From IMG/VR virus record IMGVR_UViG_2734482777_000021: DNA of 12,036 nt, one strand, 5' to 3'. The notes beneath the pieces were generated by a model. The model did not search any database. It was given only the letters and a program-made list of their open reading frames with translations, and had not been told where the DNA came from. Within the stretch, counting starts at the first letter, position 1. Each line of letters opens with the position of its first letter. A program made the position numbers and the translations under genes. This stretch comes from a virus. Lineage: Duplodnaviria; Heunggongvirae; Uroviricota; Caudoviricetes. Of the stretch, positions 3,613 through 3,763 are shown in pieces.

Positions 3613-3763
3613 TTTTGCGGGTTATGCGGGTTATTTCTGTGGATAAATCAGTATCCATATGATTATTAAAGGAATGACAGGAAAATCGTAACCCGCAAAA
3701 TACCCAAAATAACCCGCAAAACGGCAGTTATAACCCGCAAAAGTGCGATTATAACCCGCAGAA
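3613..3763. repeat. Iteron-type replication origin: inverted copies TTTTGCGGGTTA (3613..3624) and GCGGGTTA (3626..3633); AT-rich spacer with palindrome TGGATA-N6-TATCCA (3640..3657); four direct iterons TAACCCGCA(A/G)AA at 3689, 3710, 3731 and 3752
   Basis: Repeats read directly. The four direct copies are spaced exactly 21 bp apart, about two helical turns. Location is in the non-coding gap just after the primase/rep gene. Confidence 0.7.

Follow-up and report, generated by a model that had tools for sequence, protein, structure and literature searches.

Introduction

The closest described relatives of the locus considered here are the replication origins of the SaPIs, which carry six to twelve iterons directly after the rep gene; these flank an AT-rich centre in opposite directions, two or more to a side, and are read by a hexameric helicase that loads itself, through its C-terminal winged-helix domain (PMC9371898). 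In addition, a rep-ori segment of the island EcCICFT073 drives plasmid maintenance (PMC6092414). As for phage-inducible chromosomal islands of the capsid-forming kind (cf-PICIs), the literature that we covered makes no mention of iterons, and no description of an origin was found in it.

Two further systems provide points of reference. In iteron plasmids, such as P1, F, pSC101, RK2, and R6K, iterons phased at ~21–22 bp lie beside an AT-rich region and a DnaA box, and extra iteron clusters serve copy control; their initiators are winged-helix proteins of the RepA/Rep_3 type that recruit the host DnaB. In the satellite P4, the alpha protein binds both of its repeat clusters via its C-terminal domain, and both clusters are needed in cis.

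In this study, the window, i.e., the whole stretch of 12,036 nucleotides that was analysed (IMG/VR record IMGVR_UViG_2734482777_000021), is discussed with a focus on the repeats at 3613–3763, for which an earlier note, made from the sequence alone, had predicted an iteron origin composed of an initiator-binding array and an unwinding region. We consider this array to be, with a probability of roughly 0.8, the Rep-recognition (candidate Rep-binding) part of a PICI-type replication origin belonging to a cf-PICI.

The island and its gene order

The window is a cf-PICI of E. coli. Its genes start with Ash/Icd-like genes, a DUF4222 gene, and the gene for a 708-aa DUF927 protein (1461–3587), hereafter Rep, followed by the array and the genes for SSB and PerC, while the rest encodes an HK97-type capsid protein, protease, portal, connectors, HNH, TerS, and TerL; this gene order is identical to that of the prototype cf-PICI, EcCIEDL933. 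A PICI is marked by an integrase, an alpA-type regulator, a rep module, and packaging/interference genes, with no lysis or tail genes; of this set, the window carries the rep module and packaging genes, and relatives at 97–98% identity, which also match EcCIEDL933, supply the integrase and helix-turn-helix regulators. The features of the replication module first needed are:

1461..3587, plus strand: Rep, the 708-aa helicase-initiator (DUF927, MCM-like, of the SaPIbov1 Rep / SCCmec Cch type)
3824..4249, plus strand: SSB gene (Pfam SSB, E 3.8e-16), directly downstream and part of the replication module

The rep stop codon occupies 3585–3587 and the first iteron begins at 3613, in agreement with the earlier placement of the array just after the rep gene, and the candidate origin therefore lies immediately 3' of the initiator gene. 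The order rep, iterons, ssb, perC is kept in EcCIEDL933, EcCICFT073, and other islands.

Some observations on the surroundings of this module can be recorded here, with relatives designated by locus number. The region from perC to the capsid gene includes a variable accessory slot (4857–5435), which has a low GC content and does not align with L001; the slot contains an ORF on the minus strand (4876–5382, 168 aa) assigned to phrog_5789, of unknown function, and L033 and L038 have a similar gene. In L001, L033, and L038, a closely related island is integrated in the gene for the terminase large subunit of a resident HK97-like prophage and divides that gene into two parts (4132–5160/20594–21337, 4066–5094/20528–21271, and 397–1425/16930–17673, respectively), so that the prophage could package DNA only after excision of the island. 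The module composed of DUF4222, Rep, iterons, SSB, (ProQ), and PerC also occurs in islands without capsid genes (L034 12204–21890; L035 12373–14437; L036 12326–18611), and L034 encodes three very large hypothetical proteins at 14229–21576, possibly cargo or defence genes.

The iteron array

Sequence inspection, a repeat finder, and a pattern search identified six copies of TAACCCGCA within 3613–3763, arranged as two inverted abutting copies, a 55-nt AT-rich spacer, and four direct copies:

3594..3612, plus strand: semi-conserved box CTCGCGTGTAGGGTGAAAA, past the rep stop codon and ahead of the first iteron
3613..3633, minus strand: left iteron set, two inverted abutting copies with 9-mer cores at 3616–3624 and 3625–3633
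3634..3688, no strand: AT-rich spacer, 31% G+C, candidate DNA-unwinding element
3689..3763, plus strand: right iteron set, four direct copies with 21-bp phasing, plus a decayed copy at ~3700–3708

The direct copies, which have the form TAACCCGCA(A/G)AA on the plus strand, begin at 3689, 3710, 3731, and 3752, i.e., at intervals of 21, 21, and 21 bp. Those in reverse complement span 3613–3624 (0 mismatches) and 3622–3633 (1 mismatch) and, when considered as 9-mers (TGCGGGTTA), abut at a 9-bp spacing. The repeat finder and the pattern search confirmed the six-copy layout of the earlier note, with its four direct copies at exactly 21 bp and its two inverted ones. The TAA ends of both sets face the spacer, and the array accordingly presents oppositely oriented iteron sets (2 + 4) on the two sides of an AT-rich region of 31% G+C. 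The decayed copy, ATACCCAAA, stands where relatives hold a fifth site 11 bp ahead of the next one.

No TAACCCGCA site with up to one mismatch was found outside 3613–3763 in the whole window. With up to two mismatches allowed, the window contains 8 matches against 1.94 ± 1.35 in shuffled sequences (n = 200, largest 6). One-mismatch matches to the iteron inside ssb (~3838–3845 and ~3862–3869) were dismissed because L002 has an identical TGACCCGC at ~3862–3869 despite its different iteron. A search of Rfam returned no match within the window or around the second module described below. The box CTCGCGTGTAGGGTGAAAA is kept in L002 despite the exchange of both the Rep C-terminal domain and the iterons in that island, discussed later, and motifs ending in GTGTGAGGTGAAAA are found at the corresponding place in other lineages.

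The spacer and its surroundings

The earlier remark that an AT-rich stretch lies beside the iterons was borne out, since the spacer has 31% G+C, falling to 27.5% in the lowest 40-nt stretch, while the window as a whole has 51.5%. The same holds for the six relatives measured, whose spacers have 16–31% G+C against 53–58% in their own rep genes. Three smaller elements were also considered:

3638..3646, minus strand: perfect match to the DnaA-box consensus TTATCCACA, at the spacer edge and including the left arm of the palindrome
3640..3657, no strand: palindrome TGGATA-N6-TATCCA, with arms at 3640–3645 and 3652–3657
3674..3701, plus strand: weak sigma-70-like site ATGACA-16-CAAAAT, partly shared with the first direct iteron

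The palindrome, which had been singled out as part of the AT-rich flank, is real but probably incidental. A perfect 6 + 6 palindrome arises in 17% of shuffles of the spacer, and, of the five related origins that share the window's iteron, four (L022, L023, L024, and L026) do not conserve the right arm; only the left arm, the one that belongs to the DnaA box, is kept. Its presence is therefore accepted, while its standing as a feature in its own right is rejected.

Regarding the DnaA box, each of the six TAACCCGC-class origins, the window among them, has TTATNCACA at this position, with N alone varying (C, A, or G), and the box is missing from all the other iteron classes compared. As a result, help from the host DnaA is possible for origins of the TAACCCGC class and is not a feature of the family. 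A second copy of TTATCCACA lies inside terL (11192–11200) and is probably there by chance.

The sigma-70-like site provides no evidence for a promoter, as a scan of 3300–4000 found one site and 1.0 was expected from shuffles; a terminator scan of the same interval found none. The GC-skew switch proposed as a further mark of the origin did not appear at the scale of the window: the only sign change is local and due to the orientation of the iterons, which makes this check uninformative.

The Rep protein

The only Pfam match of the 708-aa protein is DUF927 (E 1.3e-46). Searches against sequences of the PDB returned 8tch, annotated as the SaPIbov1 "initiation of replication protein with helicase activity" (E 1.2e-14), and 5dgk, the Cch protein (E 0.0023); the same two structures ranked at the top, and were the only significant matches, in a Foldseek search with a poor model of Rep. 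The initiator is thus a helicase akin to SaPI Rep and Cch. The label "primase", used for this gene in the earlier note, found no substantiation, as no primase family was matched in Pfam; the homology to SaPIbov1 Rep and Cch justifies instead the name Rep, for an MCM-like helicase-initiator homologue. On the grounds of this homology and of the comparisons presented below, Rep is the likely iteron-binding protein.

3258..3584, plus strand: C-terminal domain (CTD) of Rep, aa ~600–708, predicted determinant of iteron specificity

This domain matches the Cch helix-turn-helix family of Pfam, PF18662 HTH_56, over aa 632–702 at E 6e-4, a sub-threshold score (20 bits against a 26-bit cut-off). HTH_56 is also the only family matched by the tails of the Rep family, in 6 of 17 members and with a best E of 2.8e-5, again below the Pfam cut-off. 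The AlphaFold2 model of the CTD has a pLDDT of 48, too poor for a fold assignment, and a profile search with the CTD against PDB sequences gave noise only, while a search for homologues of the CTD alone retrieved 14 proteins, mostly fragmentary. The full-length model has a pLDDT of 54 and is confident only at residues 1–130 (window 1461–1850). There, with a pLDDT of 70–90, the predicted alternation of beta and alpha elements recalls a Toprim-like fold, and no family match was found for these residues. Some relatives have Reps of 900 aa with longer, unrelated N-termini.

Conservation of the layout

Comparison with the origins of related satellites, one of the checks proposed at the outset, covered 20 Enterobacterales loci encoding Rep homologues (56–87% identity), 19 of which are readable downstream of rep, together with nine loci added from E. 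coli genomes and metagenomes. After the rep stop codon, the same grammar is kept in 28 of 29 readable relatives. In these 28, two or three inverted copies at 9-bp spacing begin ~22–45 nt past the stop codon, and direct copies follow at 11/21/21 or 21/21/21 bp in all iteron classes; the spacer between them is 42–55 nt long where measured and has 16–31% G+C in the seven cases measured, the window included. The sole exception is L030/L039, a cf-PICI with Rep P0133, in which a gene (12197–12760) directly follows rep and no recognisable iterons were found in 18.9 kb, on a contig that ends 107 nt past terL.

The repeat unit itself is specific to the lineage, and at least eight sequences were seen: TAACCCGC (in the window and in EcCIEDL933), TAACCCAC, GAACCAAC, GAACCACG, GAACCG(A/G), GGGACAAG, GGGATAAG, and GAGGCAAC. 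Variation in the TAACCCGC class affects 8 of the 54 columns in the iteron cores and 53 of the 100 elsewhere (Fisher p = 2.5e-6). Short-form origins have six sites (2 + 4 or 3 + 3), and long-form origins typically have twelve; these counts equal the numbers of Rep DNA-binding tails of one and two hexamers, respectively.

Co-variation of the Rep tail and the iteron

The Reps of L002 (E. albertii) and L027 (E. coli) are 95–100% identical to the window Rep up to residue ~580 and 33% identical over residues 600–708, and the iteron of both islands is GGGACAAG. At the DNA level, identity to L002 collapses at ~3265 and resumes at ~3793, just ahead of the ribosome-binding site of ssb, from which it follows that the exchanged cassette comprises the Rep tail and the iterons alone:

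3265..3793, no strand: naturally exchanged cassette, i.e., the coding region of the Rep CTD plus the iteron region

The same relation is found across the family. For 20 Reps, the mean CTD identity is 0.75 in pairs that share an iteron and 0.47 in pairs that do not, while the identity of the helicase core is 0.71 and 0.73, respectively, and related iterons accompany related Rep tails. The iteron is therefore specific to the Rep allele, as indicated by the joint swap of CTD and iteron, by the CTD identities, and by a second iteron module, presented in the next section, which always has the iteron of its own island: L034 and L035 have conserved flanks around it and different iterons within it. 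Since this change is coordinated at a place unlinked to rep, physical linkage is ruled out as the cause of the co-variation. Among the comparisons made here, the coordinated change at the second module is the strongest evidence that the Rep tail reads the iterons.

A second iteron module

L001 is 98.8% identical to the window over the origin region and 96–98% across the whole window, and it contains a second cluster of the 9-mer at 20165–20319, 81 nt past the terL stop codon. This module, termed module B to distinguish it from the array after rep (module A), has three inverted copies at intervals of ~21 bp and three direct ones at 8–9 bp, with an AT-rich stretch in between, and after the direct copies comes a box, TGTTTTGTATATATATACGAAAAATTG. 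Its homologous counterpart in EcCIEDL933, an island with both modules contiguous, is the second half of the intergenic region. All six short-form islands read over their full length, which represent three iteron classes, have a module B at a distance of 2–10 kb:

L001 20165–20345; L033 20100–20254; L038 16502–16656: module B, 81 nt past the terL stop codon
L034 22594–22748; L035 ~14451–14560; L036 16664–16775: module B, with the iteron of its own island

The window stops at the terL stop codon and is aligned to L001 through its last base, so its own module B would be out of view: in the three closest relatives (L001, L033, and L038), this module begins 81 nt beyond the equivalent of the window end (12036).

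The box TGTTTTGTATATATATACGAAAAATTG, which follows the three abutting iterons (L001 20321–20347), hardly differs between the TAACCCGC and GGGACAAG classes. It is also found at the end of module B in L026, L034, and L035, and in a looser form in L003, L004, L029, and L031, while L036 has only the TATATATA run of it left. This box could serve for unwinding, as a start site, or as a promoter. A similar box occurs in L039 without recognisable iterons.

From this arrangement, the array in the window seems to be half of a system of 12 iterons in two six-iteron modules. Given the presence of module B in near-identical islands, the array probably makes up only a part of the origin.

Alternative readings of the array

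The array could bind Rep and nonetheless act as an auxiliary cis element, comparable to the crr of P4 or to a handcuffing cluster for copy control, with synthesis starting at module B, which ends in the TATATATA box. The P4 record, in which crr is directly 3' of alpha and the origin 4.7 kb away, offers a precedent, and for this reason adjacency to rep does not prove that synthesis starts at the array, as the cluster adjacent to alpha in P4 is a region required in cis. A second module with the same iteron in six of six fully read six-site islands, 2–10 kb off, points in the same direction, as does the near-identity of the TGTTTTGTATATATATACGAAAAATTG box in two iteron classes, even if L036 retains only its TATATATA run. 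Set against these arguments is the fact that module A alone has the full published PICI grammar, with divergent iterons around an AT-rich spacer, and that the origin adjoins rep in both the SaPIs and EcCICFT073 (PMC6092414, PMC9371898); moreover, module B could equally be a promoter controlled by Rep. On balance, an auxiliary role is possible but somewhat unlikely.

If the repeats were operators only, with ssb, perC, and the capsid genes under the transcriptional control of Rep or another regulator, one would look to the promoter-like site that overlaps the first direct iteron and to the long-form relatives, in which a small gene and ssb come directly after the second module. The promoter-like site does not exceed chance, however, and in L001, L034, and L035 no gene follows the displaced module B, which together make a purely regulatory role improbable. 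Furthermore, a pure operator needs neither an AT-rich spacer with divergent flanking sites nor a count of 6 or 12 sites, and Rep is a helicase-initiator and does not belong to a repressor family.

A packaging site (cos/pac) or a recombination site for the terminase or integrase of the island was also considered, as the island encodes its own HNH, TerS, and TerL, and module B adjoins terL in L001, L033, and L038. The same arrays are present in islands that lack packaging genes (L034, L035, and L036), and this makes such a role highly improbable; in addition, the repeat co-varies with the Rep CTD, in a cassette that is swapped without any other coding sequence. Finally, a chance origin or a functionless, selfish simple repeat, for which only the short unit length speaks, has a negligible likelihood and is already refuted by the comparative data, given a repeat count reached in none of 200 shuffles, a grammar kept across genera with different units, and cores that are conserved while spacers vary.

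Proposed mechanism and significance

The reading of 3613–3763 as a candidate Rep-recognition module next to an unwinding region, in line with the initiator array predicted by the earlier note, is backed by the published PICI layout, by the conservation of this layout in 28 of 29 readable relatives, and by the co-variation of the iteron with the Rep CTD. The steps of binding, melting, and helicase loading are inferred from the SaPI paradigm, and by this analogy replication would proceed as follows. Upon induction by a helper phage, a rightward operon would produce the 708-aa Rep, expected to be a hexameric, MCM-like, self-loading helicase whose C-terminal DNA-binding domain would recognise the 9-mer TAACCCGCA. 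The two abutting left sites and the four right sites, phased at two helical turns and with their TAA ends toward the spacer, would be occupied together, and occupancy of all six would lead to melting of the spacer and to loading of the helicase. The SSB encoded immediately downstream would then coat the single strands, and the DnaA box at the spacer edge may add help from the host. The array would be one of two six-iteron modules, with its partner past terL and beyond the window, so that the cis-acting system would have 12 sites.

How the two modules might work together is a more tentative matter. A Rep hexamer, or else a double hexamer whose 6 + 6 DNA-binding tails match 6 + 6 iterons, could bridge them and loop the DNA, like the alpha protein of P4 with ori and crr, and only one module would fire, perhaps the distal module that carries the TATATATA box; we put forward this split origin as a speculative model that is rather unlikely to hold in full. 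If true, it would imply that PICIs and P4 have converged on, or inherited, a bipartite logic with unrelated helicases.

As a type, the array is an ordinary PICI-type origin whose layout is already known, and the split 6 + 6 layout is the twist, which poses a testable question, namely whether both modules are needed in cis and which of them fires. The findings also locate the candidate origin of a satellite family that is clinically widespread: module A was matched in 252 of 5,426 complete E. coli genomes and module B in 300 of 5,426. Moreover, Rep tails paired with at least eight iterons, near-isogenic swaps included, amount to a ready-made specificity table, useful for understanding how MCM-like self-loading helicases read DNA and for predicting replication incompatibility or cross-activation of co-resident islands.

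Comparison with known systems

The closest likeness is with SaPIbov1, SaPI1, and SaPI5, in which the origin lies 3' of rep and opposed iteron sets, for a total of 6–12 iterons, surround an AT-rich centre (PMC9371898). In these islands too the iterons are specific to the Rep allele, and the window Rep is a homologue of SaPIbov1 Rep (8tch). The window differs in its Gram-negative host and in the capsid-forming nature of the element, in having iterons of nine rather than five to six nucleotides, with strict 21-bp phasing on one side and abutting 9-bp spacing on the other, and in a system that is apparently split into two modules, possibly kilobases apart.

EcCICFT073 shares with the window the order DUF4222, rep, iterons, (small gene), ssb, perC, as well as a first pair of iterons 9 bp apart just past the stop codon, an AT-rich stretch, and copies in the opposite sense, for ~11–12 sites. 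Its iteron is instead TCTACC, all its sites are contiguous, and its initiator is of another type, a 584-aa "DNA primase family protein" whose alignment with the window Rep, at 28% identity, is limited to the latter's first ~370 residues. EcCIEDL933, the prototype cf-PICI (bioRxiv 10.1101/2022.09.08.507074), has the same gene order, Rep family, and iteron TAACCCGCA as the window; it differs in being a long form, with contiguous modules and 11 exact sites at L022 9008–9323, spaced 11/21/21.

P4 is likewise a phage satellite of E. coli, and in its annotated record a single short repeat forms two clusters at separate places, one of them directly 3' of the primase-helicase gene, with pairs 9 bp apart included. 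Two separated clusters of the same repeat were seen in L001, L033, L034, L035, L036, and L038, while the window ends 81 nt short of the point at which the second cluster begins in L001, L033, and L038. The initiators are of different types: the alpha protein shows no similarity beyond the "distant homology" reported in PMC6092414, and the window Rep, with DUF927 as its only family and Cch and SaPIbov1 Rep as its nearest structures, is not a primase-helicase of the alpha type. The P4 repeat is TGTTCACC, and for P4 the cluster that fires is known.

With the iteron plasmids, the array has in common phased iterons, an AT-rich region, and a DnaA box adjoining that region (TTATCCACA, 3638–3646). The difference lies in the initiator, as no match to the winged-helix Rep_3 / RepA families was found and the protein encoded next to the array in the window is itself the helicase.
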